From NCBI GenBank assembly GCA_965248445.1, contig CBDFJG010000004.1:768001-832000 (forward strand): 64,000 nucleotides of DNA, given 5' to 3'. This DNA comes from Planctomycetota bacterium. GTDB taxonomy: Bacteria > Planctomycetota > JAJSAM01 > JAJVHW01. A program made the translations under genes and the position numbers. Positions within the stretch are counted from its first letter, which is position 1. Each line of letters starts with the position of its first letter. The notes beneath the pieces were generated by a model, which saw only the letters and a program-made list of their open reading frames with translations, was not told where the DNA came from and did no database searches. Positions 39,347 to 49,700 of this stretch are shown one piece after another.

Positions 39347-42300
39347 CTAGCGCGGCATCACACTGCCGCGGATTTCCGGCTCCCCGCCCCGCACCCGACG
39401 CGTGTTCCAGCGCACCCGGTATGCCCGGTGTTCCGGCGTGTCCGGATAGGACTCGTCCGCACCGTACGGGTACGTGGACATCCCGAGGAACGGTAGCGGC
39501 TCGACCGTGTATCCGTGCGCGATGTACAGCTCCTGCCCCTTGCACCAGCCGGTGAACCGCAGGATGTAGTCCCGCCGCCAGCCATCTTCGAGAGCCGGCA
39601 GTGCCGACGCGGCGAACCGCACGTCGACTTCCTCTGCCTTGCCGTAGATCACGTACCGGTCGTCCGCGGCGGTCAGCAGCGGCAGCACGTCACCGAACTT
39701 CGTGTAGTCGCCGACAACGGTCTTCCACGGCATCGACTCATCACGCGTGTGGTAGTCGTAGATCCGCGGGAATCGTCCGTCCGGGGTGTACTCCCGCGGG
39801 TAACCGACGCGGGCGAGCGTGGCGCGCTCCGGCGTCAGCTCGGTGACGCGGCACGTAGTAGCCGTGTCGAGCGGACGGGCGAGCCACACCCGGTCCCAGT
39901 AGATCTCGAGATTGGTCCGGATGCGCAGCCGCGGGGTGTCGCGTGACACCAGCCCCGTCACGTCGTAGGTCATGACCCGCGGGAAGCCGGCCGGGTAGCC
40001 GATGTTCGGCGCAAGCGTCTTCCACGATCCGCCGTCATCGCCTCCGACGAACGCCTCGAGCGTCGGCAGCACGTACTCGAACTCCTCGCCGTGGGCCGCC
40101 ACGCTCGTGCGCGTGTAGCCGTACTCGATCCAGCCATGCAGGAAGAGGCCGAGCGCATCGCCCGGCGCGACGTCCGCGAGCCGATCTGCGAAGTCGAGTT
40201 CCAGCACGGACCCGTCGATGGCGCCGGTCAGCCGCGGATGCAGTCCCGGCTCCTCGGAGTAGATGCGATCGACGACCGCGATGTGTGCGAGGACGTCGCG
40301 GCCGCTCCCGTCGCGGGCTGCGGCCGGCAGGATCTCAGCGCCGTGTGCGATGACGTGCCCGTCAGCGAACGGGCGCTCGCCCGTGAATCGCTCGTCGGGG
40401 TGGACTGAGACTCCGGGAGGACTGTCCACCACCTGCAGATCCATGTGGTCGAGATAGACCATCTCCTCCATCGCCTCGACGAGCTTGAAGACGAGATCGC
40501 CGTCATCGTTCGGTGCCACCAGTTCGCCGTCCACCTTGACGCTCTCGCGCGGATCCGGCTCGGCGTAGACGCCCGGGGCGAGCAGGAATCCGACGCCTCC
40601 CGCGCCGATGAAGTCGGTGATCCAGCGGTAGGCGTGCCCGTCCCACGAGAACAGCAGTGGGCACGAGTCCGGCCGGCGCTGCTCCTCGACGATCAGGTAC
40701 GGCGCCCCCACCGGCACGTCGAGCGCGCCCTGCTGCACGGCATCCGTCCACAGGATGCGCACGAACTCCGCAGACGGCCGGGCGCCGAGGCCGAACACCG
40801 TGCGCGTCGGCGCCTGCGCGCCGTAGCCGGTCGTGCCGCCGACACGGGTGCCCTGCCAGAGCGATCCGGCCTTGGCCTCGACCCACGCGTGGCGACCCTC
40901 GAGGTTCGACCACCCGGCCTGGACGTCGTTGCGAATGACCCCGCGGAAGTCGAGAGACAGCCCGACGAAGCGGCCGGCGCAATCGAGCTGCACAAGCTGC
41001 GCGGTGGAGCCGGCCTCGTTCGTCACGACCTCTTCGACGCCGTCGCCGTCGAGGTCCGCGGCGACCAGGTTTCTCGCGCCCTTCGTCGGCACGAGGCTCC
41101 CTGCTCCCGTGAACTGCCAGGTGAGGCCGTGCAAGTACGTCCCGTTGGAGAAGAGCACGTCGGCGGACCCGCTCAGTTGAGCGTCGAGCGGCACCGCCGC
41201 ACCGCCCGGGGCGTCGAACAGGGCCTCGCGCACGAAGCCGCGCGTCGTGCCTCTGAGCTGGATCGCGCCCGACTCCCCGGCGAGGAACACGTCCTCGATG
41301 CCGTCGCGGTCGAAGTCGCCCGCGAAGCCCCCGTGCGTCCCGTCGGCGGCGAATTCCACCCAGTCCGAAGCGTCCCGGAACGAGAGCAGCCGCTCGTTCA
41401 GGTACAGCGCCGGTGAGCGGCCGGCCCGCGTGATCAGGAGGTCCAGGTCGTGGTCCTGGTCCGCGTCGAGCACGATCACCGGTCCGTACGACTCGCCGTC
41501 GCCGGCGAGGCCCGACGCCTCCGTGACGTCCACGAACGTCCCCGGGCCGCGGTTCGCGTACAGCCGGTTGCCGTGCGTCGCATCGCCGGCCAGGAACAGA
41601 TCCATGTCCCCCTCGTGATCCGCGTCGAACAGCAACACCGCGCGGGCGCCACCGGGATCATCCGCGAGTCCCGCGTTCTGCGTCACGTCCATGAACGTGC
41701 CGTTCCCGGCGTTCCGCATCACGAGCACGCGGTCCGGGAACACGATGACCAGGTCGATCATCGTGTCGCGTCCGCTGACGTTCGCGGCGACCTTCGGGTC
41801 GACGTCAAGCTCCCCCGCCGCGACGGCGTACGCGCCGGTGAAGCGCAGACCGGCGTCGTCGGTGACGTCGGTGAACCTCAACTCGCCGTCGTTGCGCAAG
41901 AGAGCGGTCTGTCCCGTCCCGCCGCACACGAAGACGTCGAGGTCCTCGTCGCCGTCGTAGTCGAACACCGTCAGACCGGGATACGGCGGCGCTCCGTCCG
42001 GCGGCGGGCCGCAGACGACGCCTCCCGCGACGAGAGGGGCGGACGTGGCGGTCACCGCGAGCCAGTCGGGTTCGTTCTCGGCTCCGCCGAACCTCGGATC
42101 CGCCCGCGAATAGCGTCCGAGGTTCCCGTAGGCGTCCGTCATCTCCTCGCCGGCCTTGATCCACTCGGCGTCGTCGTTGACCCCGCCGGTCAGCGAGCGC
42201 AGCAGGGCGAGCAACTCGTCGGCGCGCGCCGTCTCGCCCCGCCTGCGGTGCAGGAGCTGGAGCGAGTTGACAGGCGCGATCAGCGCCGGCCGGTCCTCGT

Positions 42301-42814
42301 GGACCTGGCTGAGCACCTCGAACGCCTCGTCGATCAGGTCCGACGAAAGCAGGATTCCGCCGAGCTTCGCGCCGATGACCGGATCCTCGGTGTTCCGGTA
42401 GGCCCGCCGGTAGTGCTCGATCGCCTCGTCCGTCTCGCCCGCGTTCTCCGCCAGGATGCCCGCGGCAAACACGGCGCGCGAGTGGTTCGGATCGGCCGCC
42501 GCGATCTGGCGCATCATCGCGAGCGCCTTGGGCCGGGTCTCGTCGTTCGCGTGCTGGTAGGCGAGCGCCAGGTGGAACTTGGCGGCCTGCCAGTCCGGAG
42601 TCAGCGCGTACGCCTGCTCGAGGGTCTCCAACGCCTTTGTGTAGTCGTACCGCGTGAGGTGGCCGAGCCCGCGGTTCTGCAGTTCGAGGGACTCCGCGAT
42701 GTCGGAGGGTGTGGCGGAGCCGACCCCACCCTGCCCTCCGCCGCCGCCACCGTCATCGCCGCAGCCGGGCGCCGCGAGCGTGAGAATCAACACGAACAGC
42801 GCGAGACGGCGCAT
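39347..42814 (-). CDS. Lipoprotein with TPRs, FG-GAP/VCBS repeats, ASPIC/UnbV-like domain and uncharacterised C-terminal domain
   Basis: MRRLALFVLILTLAAPG-C lipobox; TPRs; DYDGDEDLD, DADHEGDMD and DFDRDGIED repeats; SNLEG...FGLG...VRILW; SCPLLFSWDG. Confidence 0.88.
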   Translation of the reverse strand: MRRLALFVLILTLAAPGCGDDGGGGGGQGGVGSATPSDIAESLELQNRGLGHLTRYDYTKALETLEQAYALTPDWQAAKFHLALAYQHANDETRPKALAMMRQIAAADPNHSRAVFAAGILAENAGETDEAIEHYRRAYRNTEDPVIGAKLGGILLSSDLIDEAFEVLSQVHEDRPALIAPVNSLQLLHRRRGETARADELLALLRSLTGGVNDDAEWIKAGEEMTDAYGNLGRYSRADPRFGGAENEPDWLAVTATSAPLVAGGVVCGPPPDGAPPYPGLTVFDYDGDEDLDVFVCGGTGQTALLRNDGELRFTDVTDDAGLRFTGAYAVAAGELDVDPKVAANVSGRDTMIDLVIVFPDRVLVMRNAGNGTFMDVTQNAGLADDPGGARAVLLFDADHEGDMDLFLAGDATHGNRLYANRGPGTFVDVTEASGLAGDGESYGPVIVLDADQDHDLDLLITRAGRSPALYLNERLLSFRDASDWVEFAADGTHGGFAGDFDRDGIEDVFLAGESGAIQLRGTTRGFVREALFDAPGGAAVPLDAQLSGSADVLFSNGTYLHGLTWQFTGAGSLVPTKGARNLVAADLDGDGVEEVVTNEAGSTAQLVQLDCAGRFVGLSLDFRGVIRNDVQAGWSNLEGRHAWVEAKAGSLWQGTRVGGTTGYGAQAPTRTVFGLGARPSAEFVRILWTDAVQQGALDVPVGAPYLIVEEQRRPDSCPLLFSWDGHAYRWITDFIGAGGVGFLLAPGVYAEPDPRESVKVDGELVAPNDDGDLVFKLVEAMEEMVYLDHMDLQVVDSPPGVSVHPDERFTGERPFADGHVIAHGAEILPAAARDGSGRDVLAHIAVVDRIYSEEPGLHPRLTGAIDGSVLELDFADRLADVAPGDALGLFLHGWIEYGYTRTSVAAHGEEFEYVLPTLEAFVGGDDGGSWKTLAPNIGYPAGFPRVMTYDVTGLVSRDTPRLRIRTNLEIYWDRVWLARPLDTATTCRVTELTPERATLARVGYPREYTPDGRFPRIYDYHTRDESMPWKTVVGDYTKFGDVLPLLTAADDRYVIYGKAEEVDVRFAASALPALEDGWRRDYILRFTGWCKGQELYIAHGYTVEPLPFLGMSTYPYGADESYPDTPEHRAYRVRWNTRRVRGGEPEIRGSVMPR

Positions 42815-42868
42815 GGGCGACCTCTCTTCGGAGTTCCGACGGGGGGAGGAGTCCTCTTCGCCCCCGTC

Positions 42869-42904
42869 GCGGACAATGAGAATGGGGCGGACAACGAGAA
42901 TGAT
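42869..42904. repeat. 18-bp tandem repeat x2 in divergent promoter region
   Basis: GCGGACAATGAGAATGGG GCGGACAACGAGAATGAT, next to inverted repeat CGACGGGGG...CCCCCGTCG (42837-42869). Confidence 0.75.
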
Positions 42905-42943
42905 GCCGGGCACCCCGGACGCACAACTGGAGAGGTGAGCAGC

Positions 42944-43951
42944 GTGGCGAAGAGGCGCGGAACCGTCGTCGTAGACCGGATCGACAGCCGCGTGCTGCGC
43001 GGGAACGCTCTCGGCGACCCGCACGAGCGCGATCTGCACGTCTATCTGCCTCCGGGATACTCGAAGGGCAGCCGCCGGTATCCGGTGATCGTCCTGATCG
43101 TCGGGTTCACCGGGATCTCCGAGAACCCGTATCAGCGCGGGTACTTCGGGGAGGCGCTGCAGGACCGGATGGACCGACTCATCGCGGCCAAGAAGGTGCC
43201 ACCGATGCTCATCGCGACGCCGGACTGCGTGACAGCGCTCGGCGGGAGCCAATACGTCGACTCAGCGGCGGTCGGCCGGTACGAGACGTTCGTCGTCAAG
43301 GAGGTGGTGCCGCACCTGGACAGCCGGTTCCGCACCAAGCCCGCCGCGCGCCACCGGGCCATCTGCGGCAAGTCGTCGGGCGGCTACGGCGCGCTCATGC
43401 TCGGGATGCGCCACCCGGGCGTGTTCGGGTCGCTGGCCTCGCACTCCGGCGACGCGTACTTCGACTACTGCTACCGCGGCGACTTCCCCACGGCGTGGAA
43501 CACTCTGCGCGCCGCGGGCGGGCCCGAGAAGTGGCTCCGCGGGTTCCAGAAGCGCCGGGTGAAGAAGCCCGGCGGTGGCGACATCCACACGGTGAACATC
43601 ATGGCGATGGCGGCCTGCTATTCACCGAACGCCGAGGCCCCGTTGGGATTCGACCTGCCGTTCGACCTCGAGACAGGTGAGGAGCGGGCGGACGTCATGC
43701 GGCGATGGCGCGCGAAGGACCCGGTCGTGGCTTGCCGCCGCTACGCCAAGAACCTGAAGAAGCTCCGCGGAATCTTCATCGACTGCGGGCTGCGCGACGA
43801 GTGGCACCTGCACATCGGCGCACGCGTCCTGTCGCAGCGCCTCACCGAGCTCGGCATCCGCCACGTACACGAGGAGTTCGACGACACGCACCGGAGCATC
43901 TCGTACCGCTACGACGACTCGTTCGCGTATCTCGGAAGATGGACGCAATGA
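42944..43951 (+). CDS. Alpha/beta hydrolase, putative esterase family (Fes-like)
   Basis: LRGNALGDP..R.LHVYLPPGY, YPV, LGGSQY, nucleophile elbow GKSSGG, IDCG..DE, EEFDDTH; GTG start at 42944 or 42935. Confidence 0.9.
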   Translation: MAKRRGTVVVDRIDSRVLRGNALGDPHERDLHVYLPPGYSKGSRRYPVIVLIVGFTGISENPYQRGYFGEALQDRMDRLIAAKKVPPMLIATPDCVTALGGSQYVDSAAVGRYETFVVKEVVPHLDSRFRTKPAARHRAICGKSSGGYGALMLGMRHPGVFGSLASHSGDAYFDYCYRGDFPTAWNTLRAAGGPEKWLRGFQKRRVKKPGGGDIHTVNIMAMAACYSPNAEAPLGFDLPFDLETGEERADVMRRWRAKDPVVACRRYAKNLKKLRGIFIDCGLRDEWHLHIGARVLSQRLTELGIRHVHEEFDDTHRSISYRYDDSFAYLGRWTQ

Positions 43952-44313
43952 GTGACCGGAGCCCACCCACTAATCTCGACGGAATCGGAATCAGGCGGCG
44001 GATGGTCGGCGCGGGCGTCATGCTGCTCGGCGCGTGCGGGATCGCGTGGTGGTCGGGGACCGCCGCCGCTCCGAGCTGGTCCCGCTGGGTCGCGCTCGTA
44101 CCGTTCACGATCGGGGCTCTGAGTGTGTTCCAGGCCACGGCCGGGACCTGAGTGGTCCGAGCCGCGCGCGGTGCGCGCGAACGAGGCGGAAGGGTCGAAC
44201 CCATCCTGGACGCCGCGCTGCGCGACGCGATCCGCACCCGCGCTCGCGGCGTCCTGCTGCGCACCGCCGCCGCGATCGCCGCCGGCGCGCTGGCACTCGT
44301 GCTTCTCCCGTGA
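43948..44313 (+). CDS. Putative selenocysteine-containing small membrane protein (121 aa, UGA at codon 68)
   Basis: ATGA-coupled to the esterase; ...GALSVFQATAGT-UGA(44149-44151)-VVRAARGARE...AAAIAAGALALVLLP*; frame stays open 53 codons past the UGA and ends in a TM helix; SECIS-like hairpin follows the UGA. Confidence 0.72.
44152..44190 (+). promoter_or_regulatory. Putative bacterial SECIS element
   Basis: 11 nt after the UGA: stem CGCGCGC/GCGCGCG (44163-44179) with loop GGU at positions 22-24 counting U of UGA as 1; possible lower stem UCCG/CGGA. Confidence 0.68.
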
Positions 44314-44348: not shown

Positions 44349-45068
44349 ATGTCCAGGGAGGCAAGGCTCACCAAACTGGCCGCGACGGTCGCCGGCTGTG
44401 AACGCTGCCCGCGCCTCGTCGAGTACTGCCGCGCCGTAGCCATCAAGAAGCGACGCGCATACCGCGACCAGACTTACTGGGGACGTCCGGTCCCCGGCTT
44501 CGGTGACGGGAACGCCCGCGTGATGCTGCTCGGCCTGGCGCCCGGCGCCCATGGCGCGAACCGCACCGGCCGCATGTTCACCGGCGACGGCCAGGACGGA
44601 CGGGGTGCCTCCGACTTCCTGGCCGCCGCCCTCCACGCGGTCGGCGCCGCATCGCAGACCACGTCCCGCGACCGGCACGATGGATTCGCTCTGATCGACG
44701 TCTACCTGACCGCGATCTGCCGGTGCGCGCCACCGGGGAACCTGCCGTCCCGCGACGAGATCTCATCGTGCGCTGAGTACGTGCACGAGGAACTCGATTT
44801 GCTCGCCCCGCGGGTCGTCGTCGCTCTCGGCAAGCTCGCGTTCGACCAAGGCGTGCGGGTGATCGGTGACCGCGGTGGGCCGATCCCTGCGCCACGCCCC
44901 CGCTTCGGACACGGTGCCGAGTTCCAGGCCGAGGGCGACTTCCCGCTCCTGCTGGGCTCCTACCATCCGAGCCGGCTGAACACTTCCACCGGCGTGCTCA
45001 GTCAAGCGATGCTGCGCCAGGTTCTGGAACGAGCTCTCGACGTCGCGCGGGCCGACGACCCCTCGTGA
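44349..45068 (+). CDS. udgB: Uracil-DNA glycosylase, family 5 (4Fe-4S)
   Basis: CERCPRLV, YWGRPVPGFGD, GLAPGAHGANRTGRMFTGD, RCAPPGN, SYHPS. Confidence 0.93.
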   Translation: MSREARLTKLAATVAGCERCPRLVEYCRAVAIKKRRAYRDQTYWGRPVPGFGDGNARVMLLGLAPGAHGANRTGRMFTGDGQDGRGASDFLAAALHAVGAASQTTSRDRHDGFALIDVYLTAICRCAPPGNLPSRDEISSCAEYVHEELDLLAPRVVVALGKLAFDQGVRVIGDRGGPIPAPRPRFGHGAEFQAEGDFPLLLGSYHPSRLNTSTGVLSQAMLRQVLERALDVARADDPS

Positions 45069-45127: not shown

Positions 45128-46729
45128 CTAGTTCTCGACGAGTTCGTGCTCTTCGTCGGCGGCTAGGTCGCCGAACTCCTGGACTTCCCCCGTCGGCCAG
45201 CGCACGCGCACGTCCCGGATCTCACTCTCGCCGCCCAGCCCGAAGTGGACACGCAGGTCGCCTGCGGAGATGTACCCGACGCTGCCCTGCACGTCGCGCA
45301 CGACCGTGCGCTCCCCGACCCGGCCGGTGACGCGCGCGCCGAGGGCGAGCCGGTTGGAACGCGTGCCGCGCAAACGTAGGCGGACCCAGCGGCCTGCGTC
45401 CCTGGTCACGTTCGCGAAGATCGCGGCCTTGTCCGAGAGTGCCAGCACCACGACGTCGAGCCGTCCGTCGTCGTCGAGGTCCGTCGCCACCGCGCCTCTC
45501 GCGCACGCCTGCAGCGCGCCCCCGACCCCCGCGCGCACGAAGCCGCCGTCGTTCTCGGCCACCACGGCGAATGACTCCTGCGGATCCAGGCTCCGCAGAT
45601 CGCCGTGCGCTTTGTACAGGTCCAGGTCGCCGTCGTTGTCGATGTCGAACGGAACGTCCGCCCACCCCACCCACTGGCGGGACAGCGCCAGGAGCCCGAG
45701 GTCCGCCGCGCGGTCCGTGAACCACGTCTTGCGCGCCAGGTAGGCGCAGCCGCCCTCGGTGTCGGGGATCAAGAAGTCGAGCCGGCCGTCGCCGTCGATG
45801 TCCGCGGTGTCCACTCCCATCGACGCGCGCGCACTCCCGCTCAGGCCATAAGCGAGTCCCGTCACCGGCGCCACGTCCTCGAACGTGCCGTCTCCCTTGT
45901 TGCGCCAGACGAAGTTCGGCTCCGTGTCGTTCGCGACAAACACGTCGATCCAGCCGTCGTCATCGACGTCGGTCGCCACCACCGACATGGCCTTGCCGGC
46001 CTTGCCGACTCCCGCCTCGAGAGTCACGTCCTCGAAGACACCGTTGCCGTCGTTGCGGTAGAGCGACCCGGTCTGGGGGAGGAACGCCGCAGGCGGTGGA
46101 AATGCCGCGGCCGAAGCGTGGATGCGCATGTCCGTGTGCATCTGCCGCGGATCGACGTACTGCCCGACGTAGAGATCGAGGTCGCCGTCGCGGTCGTAGT
46201 CGACGAACGCGGCGCCTGCATGCAGGCCGGGCGCGATGCCGCTCCGCGCGCTCCAGTCCTCGAACGTGCCGTCGCCCGCGTTGCGATAGAGGACGCTGCC
46301 GCCGTAGTTCGAGACGAACAGGTCCGGGAGCCCGTCCCCGTCGGCGTCACCGACGCACGCTCCGAGTCCGAAGCCCGTGTCGCCGACACCGGCTGCGATC
46401 GTCACGTCCTCGAAACGAAAGCCGCCGAGGTTGCGGAACAGGCGGTTCGGCGCCGGCTTCTCCGGCCGCTCGGCCCGCGCGAAGTCCGGGTGCCACCCGC
46501 CGTTGACCATGTAGAGGTCCTGGCGTCCGTCGCCGTCGTAGTCGAGGACGGCGAAGCCACCCATCGCCGCCTTGGGGAGCGTGTCCATGCGGCCGCCGGG
46601 CAACTCGTGCCGGAAGCGGAAGCCGGAGTCGCCGTCGGCGCGCTGGAGCCGCGGGACGGGATCCGGCCGGGTGCACGCGGCCGCCGTCCCGACGAGGAGC
46701 AGGGCGGCCAGCGCCCCGACGCGATCCAC
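45128..46729 (-). CDS. CRTAC1 family lipoprotein (FG-GAP repeats + ASPIC/UnbV)
   Basis: GTG start VDRVGALAALLLVGTAAA-C; DYDGDGRQD, DADGDGLPD, DYDRDGDLD; SNRLALGARV; HFGLG; VRWPTG. Confidence 0.9.
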   Translation of the reverse strand: MDRVGALAALLLVGTAAACTRPDPVPRLQRADGDSGFRFRHELPGGRMDTLPKAAMGGFAVLDYDGDGRQDLYMVNGGWHPDFARAERPEKPAPNRLFRNLGGFRFEDVTIAAGVGDTGFGLGACVGDADGDGLPDLFVSNYGGSVLYRNAGDGTFEDWSARSGIAPGLHAGAAFVDYDRDGDLDLYVGQYVDPRQMHTDMRIHASAAAFPPPAAFLPQTGSLYRNDGNGVFEDVTLEAGVGKAGKAMSVVATDVDDDGWIDVFVANDTEPNFVWRNKGDGTFEDVAPVTGLAYGLSGSARASMGVDTADIDGDGRLDFLIPDTEGGCAYLARKTWFTDRAADLGLLALSRQWVGWADVPFDIDNDGDLDLYKAHGDLRSLDPQESFAVVAENDGGFVRAGVGGALQACARGAVATDLDDDGRLDVVVLALSDKAAIFANVTRDAGRWVRLRLRGTRSNRLALGARVTGRVGERTVVRDVQGSVGYISAGDLRVHFGLGGESEIRDVRVRWPTGEVQEFGDLAADEEHELVEN

Positions 46730-46730
46730 G

Positions 46731-49700
46731 CTACTCGCCGCTCCCCACCGGAAGCTGGATCTCGACGCGCGAAGAGCCTCCCTCGACGACCTCGAACGGG
46801 TCGCTGCGGCGGGATGCGGCGTCCTTCGACACGCCGATCGTGTACGTCCCCGGCGAGATTCCGTCCAGACGGCAATCCCCGCGTGCATCGGTCTTCGCCG
46901 CCTGGGTCGAGAAGATCGAGCTGATCGAGATCGCCCGCTCGATGCGGTTGCCGTCGGCGTCCAGCACGTCGACGAGCGCGCCCCCGAGTGGCGCGCCGCC
47001 TTCGTCGGTCACGACGACGTCGATGGTGCCACCCTTCAAGAGCGTGAAATCGAGTGTGACCTGCTCGCCGACGGCAACCTCCGACTCCTTCTCGGCCGGT
47101 GCGTAGCCGTCCTTCGAGAACGCGAACGTGAAGCGACCGGGGGGCAGCGTGGCCTGGATGTAGCTGCCGTCACTCGACGACGAGGTCAGCCCGACCAAGA
47201 ACAGCGCGCGACCCTGATCGTCGGTCACGACGAGCTGCGCGCCGGAGATCGGTGTGCCCGCTGCGTTGCGCACGAACCCGGTCACTGTGGCCGGTGAACC
47301 GAGTTCGAGCCGCACGGGAGCGGCATCGGCGCCACCGACGATCGTGATGCCGTCTTCCACAACGGCCCCGTAGCCCTCACGGAACGCGCGGATGCGGTAG
47401 CTGCCGTCTTCCAGTCCACCGATCTCGAACTCTCCGGTCTCGCCGGTGATGTCGTTGCCCTTCCAGCGCTGAGAGATCGTGCTCAGGTTGCTGGCACCGG
47501 CCTCGACGACGCGCTCGCACTCAACGTACACGCCCGACAGAGCATCGCCCGTCGAGACGTCCTTCACCGTCCCGACGATCGTCGCGGTGGCCATGACGAT
47601 CTCGACCGGCTCGGGCGGCTGGTCCGCCGGCACGGTCACGGCGATCGAACGGCTGCCTCCCGACTGCGCAGTCAGCTGGTACTTGCCCGGCTGCACCTGC
47701 TTGAACGTGAACGTGCCGTCGTCCCCCGTTCGCTCCTGTTCGAGAGCGCTCCCGCCGTCGTTGCTGACGAGCGAGATCGAGACGTTCGCGACCGGCTCGG
47801 CACCGCGCAACACGCGGCCCGTGAGCGGGAAGCCCCCTGTTTCGGTGCCGAAGTCGATGACGACAACGGCGCCCTCGGCGACCTTCACACTTCCCTTGCT
47901 CCGGCTGGTCTGCCCGGGCAGGAAGCGTCCCACCGAGACGGTGTACGTCTTGTCGATCGGGACGTTGGTGAACGAGTAGCGCCCGTCGTCGCCGGTCACT
48001 GCGGTGCGGCGTGCGAACAGGTCGAAGCCCGACGTCAGCTCCATGCTCGTACCGGACTGCGGCATACGCGCGTCATCCAGCACCACACCCTCGATGCGTC
48101 CCCCGCTCCCGAGTGCGAATTCGACCGGCGGCGGGAGCGAACCGTCCTCGCCGGCCGGAACGGGATCCACGCCCTCGAACAGCGTGGATGTGTGATCCAC
48201 GTGCGCGACACGCAGCGAGAGCGTGCGCGGGGCCAGTTTGTCGAGCACGAACACGCCGTTCTCGTCGGTCACCGTCGTCAGGTCCTTCACGCGGGACGGC
48301 GGGAAGCCGCCCTTCTCGACGAACACCTCCGCTCCGATGACTGCCTTGCCGGTGAAGCGCCCCACGACCTTGCCGCGCACGATGCCCGCCGCTTCGAGAG
48401 CAATTGCGATCGGCTCCGCGGCGGGGGCGTCGCCTTCGGCTCCCGGCGGCGAGATCTTGATGCTCGTGACGTCCTTCAGCATGTAGCCCGCTGCACTCAC
48501 CTCGAGGCCGTAGTCCGACGGCGGCAGGCGCATGGTGTGCTCGCCGTTCGGGGAGTCGATCTCAAAGAGAGGTGCGAACAGGTAGGCGAACGGCACCTTC
48601 AGGTACGGGCGCAGACCGAACTTTGTGATCGGTTGCCCGGTCGCCGCGTCCGTCACGCGCACCGAGAACTCTCCGCCGAGCTTGATCACGATCTCGAGGT
48701 CCTGCGTACCCGCGGCAACCTGCTGGGACTGCTCGCCGCCGTACTCGTCTTTGTTCGCGAACACCATGTGCTGGCCGCCGCGGAGGCCTCCGAGCGTGAA
48801 CTTGCCCTCGCCGTCGCTGACGACGGCGGGTACGGCCGAGAAGTCACTCCAGCGCAACCCACCGATGCGCGCTCCGGCGATCGGCTCCTGCGCCTCGTTG
48901 AGGATGCGGCCGGAGATCGTCATGCCGGCCTCTATCCGGAAGCTCACGAGCGTCTTCGTGTCGTGCTGCACGGTCATGCGCTCGCGCAGCCCCGTGGCGA
49001 ACCCCTCCGCTTCGGCGAACACGTCGTAGGCCGCCGGCGGCATCAGCTCGAACTCGGCATATCCCGCGGCGTCGGTCTGCGCGCGCAGGATCGTGCCGCC
49101 GGGCACCTTCTCCCACTGCCCGAGCGAGAGCAGCGCGCCGTAGTAGATCGTGGAGGCTGTGACCGACACGTCCGGGATCGGCGCGCCTTCGCTGTCCTTG
49201 CAGAGCACACGCAGCCGGTTGTCGACGTGATCGCCGACGGCCGCGCCGACGTAGATCGTCCCGATGTCCGTCACGTCACCTGCGTCCACCTGCAACCGGT
49301 CGAATCCGCCGCGGGCAAAACCGTCGGCGTGCGCCTCGACGTGGATCCCCGTGCCGGGCGGAACGTTCGCCATCCGGAACGAACCGTCCTTCCCCGCGTG
49401 TGCGCGGGCCAGCGGCTTACTACTCCTCATCGCGGTCACGACGGCACCCACGGCGGGCCGGGTCTGCACGATCATCACGCGCCCGGTGATCGAGCCGAGC
49501 TCCGGGTTCTGCTCGAACTCCTGCCCGATCTCGGGGTACTTCTGCTGGTACGGCGTGCCGGAGGGGCGCGTGACGCGCACCCGGCCGGGCTCCTCGGTGC
49601 CGGGCTTGACGCGATCACGACGGTTGCCGCCCTCTTCGGCGTCCTCTCCGTCGAGGGCGACGTACTCGAGGCTCTCGCCGCCGTCACCGAGACCGGAGGG

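Follow-up and report, generated by a model that had tools for sequence, protein, structure and literature searches.

An in-frame UGA that almost certainly encodes selenocysteine in a small three-helix membrane protein of a Planctomycetota bacterium

The stretch of DNA analysed here, 64,000 nucleotides of the genome of a Planctomycetota bacterium (assembly GCA_965248445.1, contig CBDFJG010000004.1, positions 768,001 to 832,000 of the forward strand; hereafter the window, whose own numbering is used throughout), contains a small plus-strand gene whose reading frame is interrupted by a TGA. The frame opens at ATG 43948 with MSDRSPPTNLDGIGIRRRMVGAG...FQATAGT, meets TGA at 44149-44151, and then runs on through 53 open codons, VVRAARGARERGG...LVLLP, to a second TGA at 44311-44313 (Table 1). 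Read as one gene, it has 121 residues with the in-frame UGA as codon 68, and our analyses lead us to conclude that the gene is real and that this UGA almost certainly encodes selenocysteine (Sec) in a three-helix membrane protein. An earlier reading made from the letters of the DNA alone (the sequence-only reading) had described a frame continuing for 53 codons past the TGA, adding a third transmembrane helix and filling the gap to a downstream uracil-DNA glycosylase (UDG) gene, and all of this is seen (third helix at residues 89-119; UDG start codon at ATG 44349). The G+C content by codon position is coding-like both 5’ and 3’ of the TGA. The codon directly 3’ of the UGA is GTG (44152), and a second in-frame ATG, at 43939, lies 5’ of ATG 43948. 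Long open frames past stops are common in this G+C-rich window and the local folding energy is unexceptional, so that the site gets its weight from comparative data.

We began with a six-frame search of related genomes using the single read-through protein. Seven relatives matched across both sides of the site with exactly one TGA inside, and one relative matched without a stop. A profile built from those matches was then searched in 401 sampled genomes of the phylum, where it found matches in 32, 30 of them full length (spanning from about positions 1-9 to positions 120-123 of the 123 in the profile). Twenty-two of these 30 homologues have one in-frame stop, which is always TGA and always falls in the same aligned column; seven have TGC (Cys) there and one has TCG (Ser), and neither TAA nor TAG occurs at the Sec column in any of the 30. 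The aligned context of the site is ...F-Q-A-x-x-x-T-U-V-x-L-A-A-R-G.... The sequence-only reading had held that homologues ought to carry TGA or Cys at position 68 between conserved flanks, and that the 53 downstream codons ought to be conserved as well. The counts in the phylum sample agree with the first expectation, as do the 146 Cys residues in the best 150 database homologues described below, and the second is borne out by profile matches that reach the C-terminal end in all 30. The Cys forms are single continuous open reading frames (ORFs). Two genera hold both forms: in one, G274 has TGA and G330 has TGC, and in the other G041 has TGA and G209 has TGC. By sequence, the pairs that switch between TGA and TGC within genera are L051 versus L054 and L059 versus L062. 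Judged from these alignments, the exchange of TGA and Cys at a single column is the classical signature of a Sec/Cys family.

The family extends well beyond the sampled phylum genomes. An exhaustive profile search over 1.84 billion representative proteins returned 1959 matches at E<=1e-3 and 529 at E<=1e-10. In the best 150 of the 1959, nearly all of them 110-140 residues long, the Sec column holds Cys in 146, Ser in two, Gly in one and Asp in one. Every source name among the database matches examined was ‘hypothetical protein’, and none of these matches had a precomputed Pfam domain. Three of the database matches are stubs of 66-68 residues, including a 67-residue stub of the window gene itself, which was also the only protein returned by a word-based search with the read-through protein. 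A family-profile search for longer homologous proteins found none, which is weak evidence. TGA forms were sought with a DNA pattern of 18 specified bases (Q-A-x3-T-TGA-V-x2-A-x-R-G) scanned over one genome per prokaryotic species; the pattern recovers 14 of the 22 known Sec forms, and its one match in the window’s genome is the gene itself. The scan gave at least 119 stretches, with at least 110 clear family members carrying an in-frame TGA and nine chance matches among those listed. The record labels of the TGA forms, which may be imprecise for metagenome-assembled genomes, include many Gemmatimonadales together with Myxococcales, Polyangiaceae, Nannocystaceae, Planctomycetota, Methylomirabilota, Rokubacteria, Anaerolineae, Chloroflexota, Binatia, Acidobacteriota, Tectomicrobia, Zixibacteria, Ignavibacteria, Poribacteria and Verrucomicrobiia.

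A hairpin follows the UGA. With the U of the UGA taken as nt 1, the two arms of the hairpin are nt 15-21 (CGCGCGC, 44163-44169) and nt 25-31 (GCGCGCG, 44173-44179), and the three nucleotides between them, GGU (nt 22-24, 44170-44172), form the loop. The stem begins 11 nt after the UGA, and the 7-bp hairpin is present in both the minimum-free-energy and the centroid structures computed by RNAfold; the 7-bp stem, its distance and its loop had been given exactly so in the sequence-only reading. Among the 106,498 TGA triplets of the genome (both strands, all frames), 22 are followed by an unbroken stem of 7 bp whose 5’ arm is nt 15-21 and by GG at nt 22-23, and six of those 22, the window site among them, also have at least 60 open codons before and at least 50 after the TGA. 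The combination of UGA and hairpin geometry is thus rare within the genome, though not unique.

The hairpin is also kept across the family, whose Sec forms show no alignment gaps over 48 nt from the TGA onwards. For pairs 15-33 to 21-27, standard pairs fill 79.2% of the cells in the phylum sample’s 22 Sec forms, and five of the seven stem pairs have changed on both sides, with a covariation of 0.257; the paired fraction and the covariation were each reached by one of 500 shuffles. The compensatory changes include C17-G31/G18-C30 to G17-C31/C18-G30 in L046, and G18-C30 to A18-U30, with A16-U32 and G15-C33, in L052. Two of the 22 (L048 and L061) share another hairpin, 6 nt further downstream, with the loop CGUGA. 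The mean folding energy of nt 10-39 is -13.3 kcal/mol in the 22 Sec forms and -8.3 in the eight non-Sec forms (Mann-Whitney p=0.001, with kin that are not independent). The Cys form L051 keeps a hairpin-like stem after its codon (-13.1 kcal/mol), as expected after a recent Sec-to-Cys change. In a wider set of 111 sequences, 76.8% of cells are paired and 37 cells have changed on both sides, a number reached by none of 500 shuffles; sliding the partner by 1 nt lowers pairing to 10-14%. The second register, 15-31 to 21-25 with the triloop GGU, which is that of the window gene, is paired in 69.8% of cells in the same set, and several family members have the loop GGUCU or GGUCA. A stem-loop with a G in its apical loop stands shortly after the UGA and is kept among the Sec forms, one of the features by which a bacterial selenoprotein gene is judged. 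An Rfam scan of the whole window at gathering thresholds gave 0 matches.

The organism is equipped to decode such a codon. The sequence-only reading had pointed to selA, selB, selC and selD as the genes to look for, and all are present in the 5.4-Mb genome: selA (502.3 bits), selB (335.7 bits; G000:C4:739119-741011), a tRNA-Sec (68.3 bits; called tRNA-SeC(tca) by ARAGORN) and selD (386.1 bits; G000:C3:1080793-1081719, minus strand), the last itself with an in-frame TGA in GGG-U-ACK. The selB gene is on the same contig as the window; its start lies 29 kb before the window’s first base and about 73 kb from the 121-residue gene. A Sec-type formate dehydrogenase was not found in the genome, where the TIGR01553 matches fall below the cut-off and are without stops. 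Elsewhere on the contig, outside the window, an AhpD-like ‘peroxidase-related enzyme’ gene (G000:C4:366298-366888, L203:199-786; TIGR01926 at 127.4 bits, cut-off 81.8) encodes C-L-Y-U with an in-frame TGA as the last of these codons, after which comes a hairpin of nt 15-21/27-33 with the loop GGUCU, and it is one of the six sites of the genome scan. TIGR01926 is a CxxU selenoprotein family in a published inventory (PMC13188914); a selenoprotein gene of known type in the same genome thus has its stem from nt 15 and therefore uses the geometry of our candidate. A gene caller would split this CxxU gene at its TGA.

The distribution of the machinery across the phylum sample follows the TGA. At E<=1e-40, selA is found in 21 of the 22 TGA-form genomes, and the 22nd, an assembly of 340 contigs that is 92% complete, has selB (296.4 bits) at a contig end and a tRNA-Sec (68.8 bits). 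Among the seven Cys-form genomes selA is present in five; the two most divergent Cys forms lie in genomes without selA and without selB over the cut-off, one of them a single contig, 99% complete, with no tRNA-Sec over the cut-off, and the other with a borderline tRNA match of 49.3 bits. TGA forms occur only in Sec-using genomes.

Several observations weigh on the other side. One close relative, G001, has Ser at the Sec column. Its copy (L042, protein P0005) has TCG there, has lost the conserved Gln and reads L-E-A for F-Q-A; judging by these changes, it may be inactive or diverged. The 71-nt stretch in the window folds with a z of -1.39, and 16 of 200 shuffles fold as well or better. In the 111 sequences, pairing still stands at 69.8% and 53.4% after slides of -2 and +2, as the stem repeats CG, and is thus in part compositional; this set was, moreover, picked by a pattern that fixes 11 columns (nt 1-5, 13, 14, 19, 20, 22 and 23). 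The A-A-R-G-x-R peptide encoded by the stem is also conserved in Cys forms, and part of the RNA conservation is therefore protein-driven. Finally, selA turns up in 290 of the 401 genomes sampled across the phylum, a frequency that makes its co-occurrence with the TGA form only moderately discriminating, a test of consistency that the gene passes rather than strong statistics.

Set against these points, the recurrence of TGA in 22 of 30 homologues, the Cys homologues, the Sec machinery and the kept hairpin support the 121-residue selenoprotein with Sec68 at the end of the second transmembrane helix that the sequence-only reading had proposed. The UGA would be decoded as Sec by the organism’s own SelB/tRNA-Sec system, directed by a selenocysteine insertion sequence (SECIS) hairpin within the coding sequence, with its stem 11 nt past the UGA and GGU in the apical loop; the RNA hairpin would consist of codons for the conserved peptide A-A-R-G-x-R.

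Table 1. Features of the candidate selenoprotein gene and its neighbours (positions in the window).
Feature	Position	Strand	Basis
Whole predicted selenoprotein gene	43948..44313	+	Homologues align full length across TGA; coding-like G+C on both sides
N-terminal motif N-[IL]-[GD]-x-x-G-x-R-R-R, residues 9-18; N9 and R18 nearly invariant	43972..44001	+	Family alignments
Helix 1, residues 12-38, transmembrane by hydrophobicity	43981..44061	+	AlphaFold2 model
Helix 2, residues 45-65, with conserved F-Q-A-x-x-x-T at its end, next to Sec	44080..44142	+	Model and alignments
UGA, predicted to be read as Sec68	44149..44151	+	TGA/Cys column in homologues
V-x-L-A-A-R-G-x-R-x-x-D-x-G segment: short helix 69-74 and beta hairpin 76-85; overlaps SECIS	44152..44211	+	Alignments and model
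Predicted SECIS hairpin, 7 bp, loop GGU; family-wide register nt 15-21/27-33, loop GGUNN	44163..44181	+	RNAfold and covariation
Helix 3, residues 89-119: amphipathic start L-R-x-x-A-R, then third transmembrane stretch	44212..44304	+	AlphaFold2 model and alignment
GGAAGA, putative Shine-Dalgarno-like site, 8 nt 5’ of ATG 43948	43934..43939	+	Read by eye, inference only
Upstream esterase PF00756, 70 bits; true start further upstream	43049..43951	+	Pfam
Downstream UDG superfamily gene PF03167, 101 bits, ATG 44349	44349..45068	+	Pfam

An AlphaFold2 model of the protein, made with a 94-sequence alignment, contains the four helices and the beta hairpin of Table 1 and is of very high confidence, with a mean predicted local distance difference test score of 96.0 and a predicted template-modelling score of 0.86. 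Sec68 lies three residues after the end of helix 2. The residues that are nearly invariant in the family are N9, R18, R46, Q62, T67, U/C68, A72 and G75, and the family core reads Q-A-x-x-x-T-(U/C)-V-x-L-A-A-R-G-x-R. Arginine is concentrated in the N-terminal segment and in the stretch past residue 68, and not in the loop between helices 1 and 2. Because the segment after Sec68 is Arg-rich, it is probably cytoplasmic; by the positive-inside rule the N-terminus and Sec68 probably face the cytoplasm, with the C-terminus outside. A two-copy complex prediction of a Cys homologue with alignment scored 0.00, which speaks neither for nor against a dimer.

Cysteines other than the one that replaces Sec are scattered through the family. 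One stands just before N-[IL]-G near the N-terminus in 38 of 110 listed Sec forms and 71 of 135 Cys forms, and another nine residues past the Sec site in 3 and 21 of these, respectively. The core of 53 of the 110 listed Sec forms contains no Cys at all, and the only Cys of the window protein is C30, inside helix 1. Since the extra Cys residues are not conserved and about half of the listed TGA forms have none, the selenol probably acts on an outside partner or substrate and not within an internal redox pair. Sec68 would then be a lone nucleophile, located where helix 2 meets the cytoplasm and directed at that partner or substrate, and not one half of a UxxC-type pair.

The neighbours of the gene are kept only among relatives of its own taxonomic family. 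Its ATG overlaps the stop codon of the upstream esterase gene (TGA 43949-43951) as ATGA, 43948-43951. The translational coupling proposed in the sequence-only reading holds as far as this plus-strand overlap at the locus; the esterase (PF00756) is upstream in six of the seven relatives from that taxonomic family, and its association with the gene is confined to these. The UDG gene (PF03167) is downstream in two of the seven. On the opposite strand the locus is flanked by large ORFs (39347-43252 and 45128-46888, both minus) that, judged by eye, contain FG-GAP/VCBS-like repeats and TPR-like stretches.

A concrete lead to function comes from a group of fused proteins (L078, L084, L093, L118 and L134, with the cut sequences L114 and L165) in which the three-helix module is followed by a DedA/VTT domain (PF09335, 52 bits) and then a rhodanese (PF00581, 47.5 bits). 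Among NCBIfam models the fused rhodanese fits NF041203 (rhodanese_LYCAU, ‘rhodanese-related (seleno)protein’) best, with 80.7 bits where the cut-off is 115. Fused members have a second in-frame TGA, at ...VVLYCS-U-PNE..., with its own hairpin after it; in L093 (363-1724, minus strand) the fusion has 454 residues, and its two TGAs correspond to U68 and to U404, the latter in L-Y-C-S-U. Immediately upstream of the fusion gene, L093 has a further rhodanese fragment. By sequence, the fused members are two-selenocysteine membrane proteins, and they tie the module to sulfurtransferase chemistry.

Because one lineage fuses the module to DedA and a Sec-rhodanese, sulfur or selenium transfer, or a thiol-type redox reaction, is the most likely job for the protein. 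We tentatively propose that the selenol at the membrane face could work in this way in concert with rhodanese-like sulfurtransferases. Several results weigh against it. The fusion is limited to one closely related sequence group. The longest upstream ORFs of 72 loci from other lineages fall into unrelated Pfam families, and all-against-all clustering of 728 flanking ORFs from the 72 loci, which covered the downstream ORFs as well (the Pfam scan took the longest upstream ORF of each locus), found no neighbour family in more than five loci. Structure searches gave no informative match: Foldseek found nothing in the PDB at E<=0.001 (its best match had E 1.3), a VIA-align search of 48,161 chains brought up generic helical bundles only (best Z 7.3), and in the ESM Atlas the clusters nearest to the Cys homologue P0007 are ‘hypothetical protein’ without a Pfam family. 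It is tempting to speculate further that the gene is the first example of a membrane-embedded selenoprotein family, widespread and uncatalogued, whose cytoplasmic-face selenol relays sulfane sulfur or selenium from rhodanese-type sulfurtransferases to a membrane process, the two-Sec fusion marking an undescribed trafficking pathway; on the sequences at hand we would call this broader proposal doubtful.

The best-surviving alternative accepts a real selenoprotein and gives it another task, the handling of metals or metalloids (mercury, copper or arsenic) in the manner of MerT, in place of sulfur or selenium transfer. The size of the protein, its three helices and the reactive residue between helices 2 and 3 recall MerT, a protein of about 120 residues and three helices with its reactive residue in the cytoplasmic loop after helix 2, and some family members do have the second Cys nine residues on, or the N-terminal Cys. 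A ‘putative mercuric transport protein’ selenoprotein (PF02411) is, moreover, listed in Table 1 of PMC13188914. The window protein, however, has no PF02411 match at E<=10 and no paired Cys, the additional cysteines are missing altogether from the 53 listed Sec forms noted above, no mer genes lie nearby, and no metal-resistance genes recur beside the gene in the 72 loci. The only fusion partner seen is DedA with rhodanese. We consider metal handling unlikely.

It is also conceivable that the UGA is read through without Sec, by a near-cognate Trp, Cys or Arg tRNA, or that it forms a stop/go device in which the hairpin slows termination, since hairpins after leaky stops can promote read-through. 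Against this, the sense codon that replaces TGA encodes Cys, bar rare Ser, Gly and Asp, which is the signature of Sec/Cys families. Every TGA-form genome is equipped with Sec machinery, a genome that lacks the machinery carries the Cys form, and the hairpin has the position and loop of a SelB-type element, matching the known-type selenoprotein gene of the same genome. We therefore regard read-through without Sec as very improbable.

An equally slim chance is left to the TGA being a true stop, which would end a 67-residue two-helix protein and leave behind it a separate 53-residue product starting at GTG 44152, untranslated sequence, or the remnant of a nonsense pseudogene. Gene callers do end the ORF at the TGA, and the public collection holds the 67-residue product together with the two other short forms; the GTG is in place directly after the TGA in the window, and the genome uses TGA as an ordinary stop, both for the esterase and at the gene’s own end. 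Against a true stop, the TGA recurs at the same column in 22 of the sampled genomes of the phylum and in at least 110 genes elsewhere, with no TAA or TAG, and the reading frame stays conserved over the 53 codons downstream. Directly after the TGA, 14 of the 22 Sec forms have GTG and the other eight have GTC (five), GTA, ATC or GCC; the tail cannot generally start on its own, because in those eight the codon is no start codon (ATG, GTG or TTG). The Cys forms, with 146 of the best 150 database homologues among them, are continuous ORFs, and TGA and TGC have been exchanged within genera. A sequencing error or a private nonsense mutation is ruled out by the recurrence of the TGA in many independent assemblies.

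Selenoprotein genes are routinely cut at the UGA, and the three stubs are all that the public collection holds of the window gene and two others. With at least 110 TGA-form genes in species-representative genomes and 1959 database matches, a family model would put many annotations right. In what is otherwise an anonymous ‘hypothetical protein’ family, the Sec/Cys column marks the functional residue, and the two-Sec fusion with DedA and rhodanese offers a concrete lead to what that residue does. The locus also shows how codons for a conserved Ala-Ala-Arg-Gly-x-Arg peptide can double as a SECIS. Most catalogued selenoproteins are soluble redox proteins (PMC13188914); the family would add one that is embedded in the membrane and lacks both a thioredoxin-like fold and a CxxU/UxxC pair.

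The resemblance to known systems is closest in the decoding signal. In the excerpt of PMC8659212 that describes the E. coli fdhF SECIS, the upper stem-loop comprises nt 15-31, begins 11 nt from the UGA, has G23/U24 in its loop and includes a bulged U17. The likeness to fdhF noted in the sequence-only reading is accurate on the terms of that excerpt, with the stem from nt 15 and G23/U24 in the loop, and the window gene shares with the fdhF type of SECIS inside the ORF the in-frame UGA, the stem 11 nt after it, the G/U loop nucleotides at nt 23-24 and the existence of Sec/Cys pairs. The bulged U17 of that description is absent from the window hairpin, a further point against our reading of the site. 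The window stem differs also in being a CG repeat that allows two registers, with a loop of 3 or 5 nt, and fdhF encodes a molybdoenzyme whereas the window product is a small membrane protein. The AhpD-like TIGR01926 protein shares genome and SECIS geometry with the window gene and differs in being soluble, in belonging to a known family and in its CxxU redox pair; the window protein has no nearby Cys and no family model.

E. coli YgaP joins a DUF2892-type membrane domain to a rhodanese, a layout that resembles the rhodanese-fused members of the window family. The DUF2892 family (PF11127) is further alike in a basic N-terminal motif of the (D/E)-R-x-x-R-x-x-x-G type, two helices and a conserved T-x-C after helix 2, and it differs from the window family, which adds a third helix and the beta hairpin. 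The loose relationship to YgaP and DUF2892 suggested in the sequence-only reading did not survive as more than this resemblance. The window protein has no PF11127 match at E<=10; across 18 Cys homologues and two N-terminal pieces the best score was 19.3 bits (cut-off 25.3); and hhalign of the 94-sequence family profile with a small profile of 12 DUF2892 sequences from the phylum gave a probability of 0.87% (E 0.064) across 14 columns around the Cys. Searching the genomes with PF11127 located true genes at other loci in 12 of 31 relatives and none in the window’s genome, and did not pick up the window locus. By these profile comparisons homology to the YgaP-like domain is not supported, which weighs against the proposed function. 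NF041203, listed as ‘rhodanese-like form 3, CxU’ in Table 1 of PMC13188914, resembles the C-terminal domain of the fused members, with the TGA at L-Y-C-x-U; it is a fusion partner in one lineage and not part of the window gene.

Catalogues of protein and selenoprotein families hold no counterpart that we could find. Pfam-A and NCBIfam 20.0 contain no family for the read-through protein, for either half of it, or for the Cys homologues. The 119 selenoprotein families and subfamilies in Table 1 of the 2026 review PMC13188914 include no small multi-helix membrane family of the window type, and none of the Pfam, TIGRFAM and NCBIfam models that define nearly all of those families matches the protein or its Cys homologues (cd and PTHR entries fall outside this comparison). 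In passages of deep-Sep (PMC12013277) and BSepDB (PMC13326102) there is no mention of such a family, and the supplementary tables of both may list more. Full-text searches of the PubMed Central CC and bioRxiv collections gave no paper joining a selenoprotein with DUF2892, with YgaP, or with DedA and rhodanese, and for membrane selenoproteins nothing relevant among the matches listed. From these comparisons, the decoding mechanism of the window gene appears to be the standard bacterial one and the protein family appears new to the catalogues: the family would be new, the kind of system it belongs to is well known, and no new kind of biology is involved.

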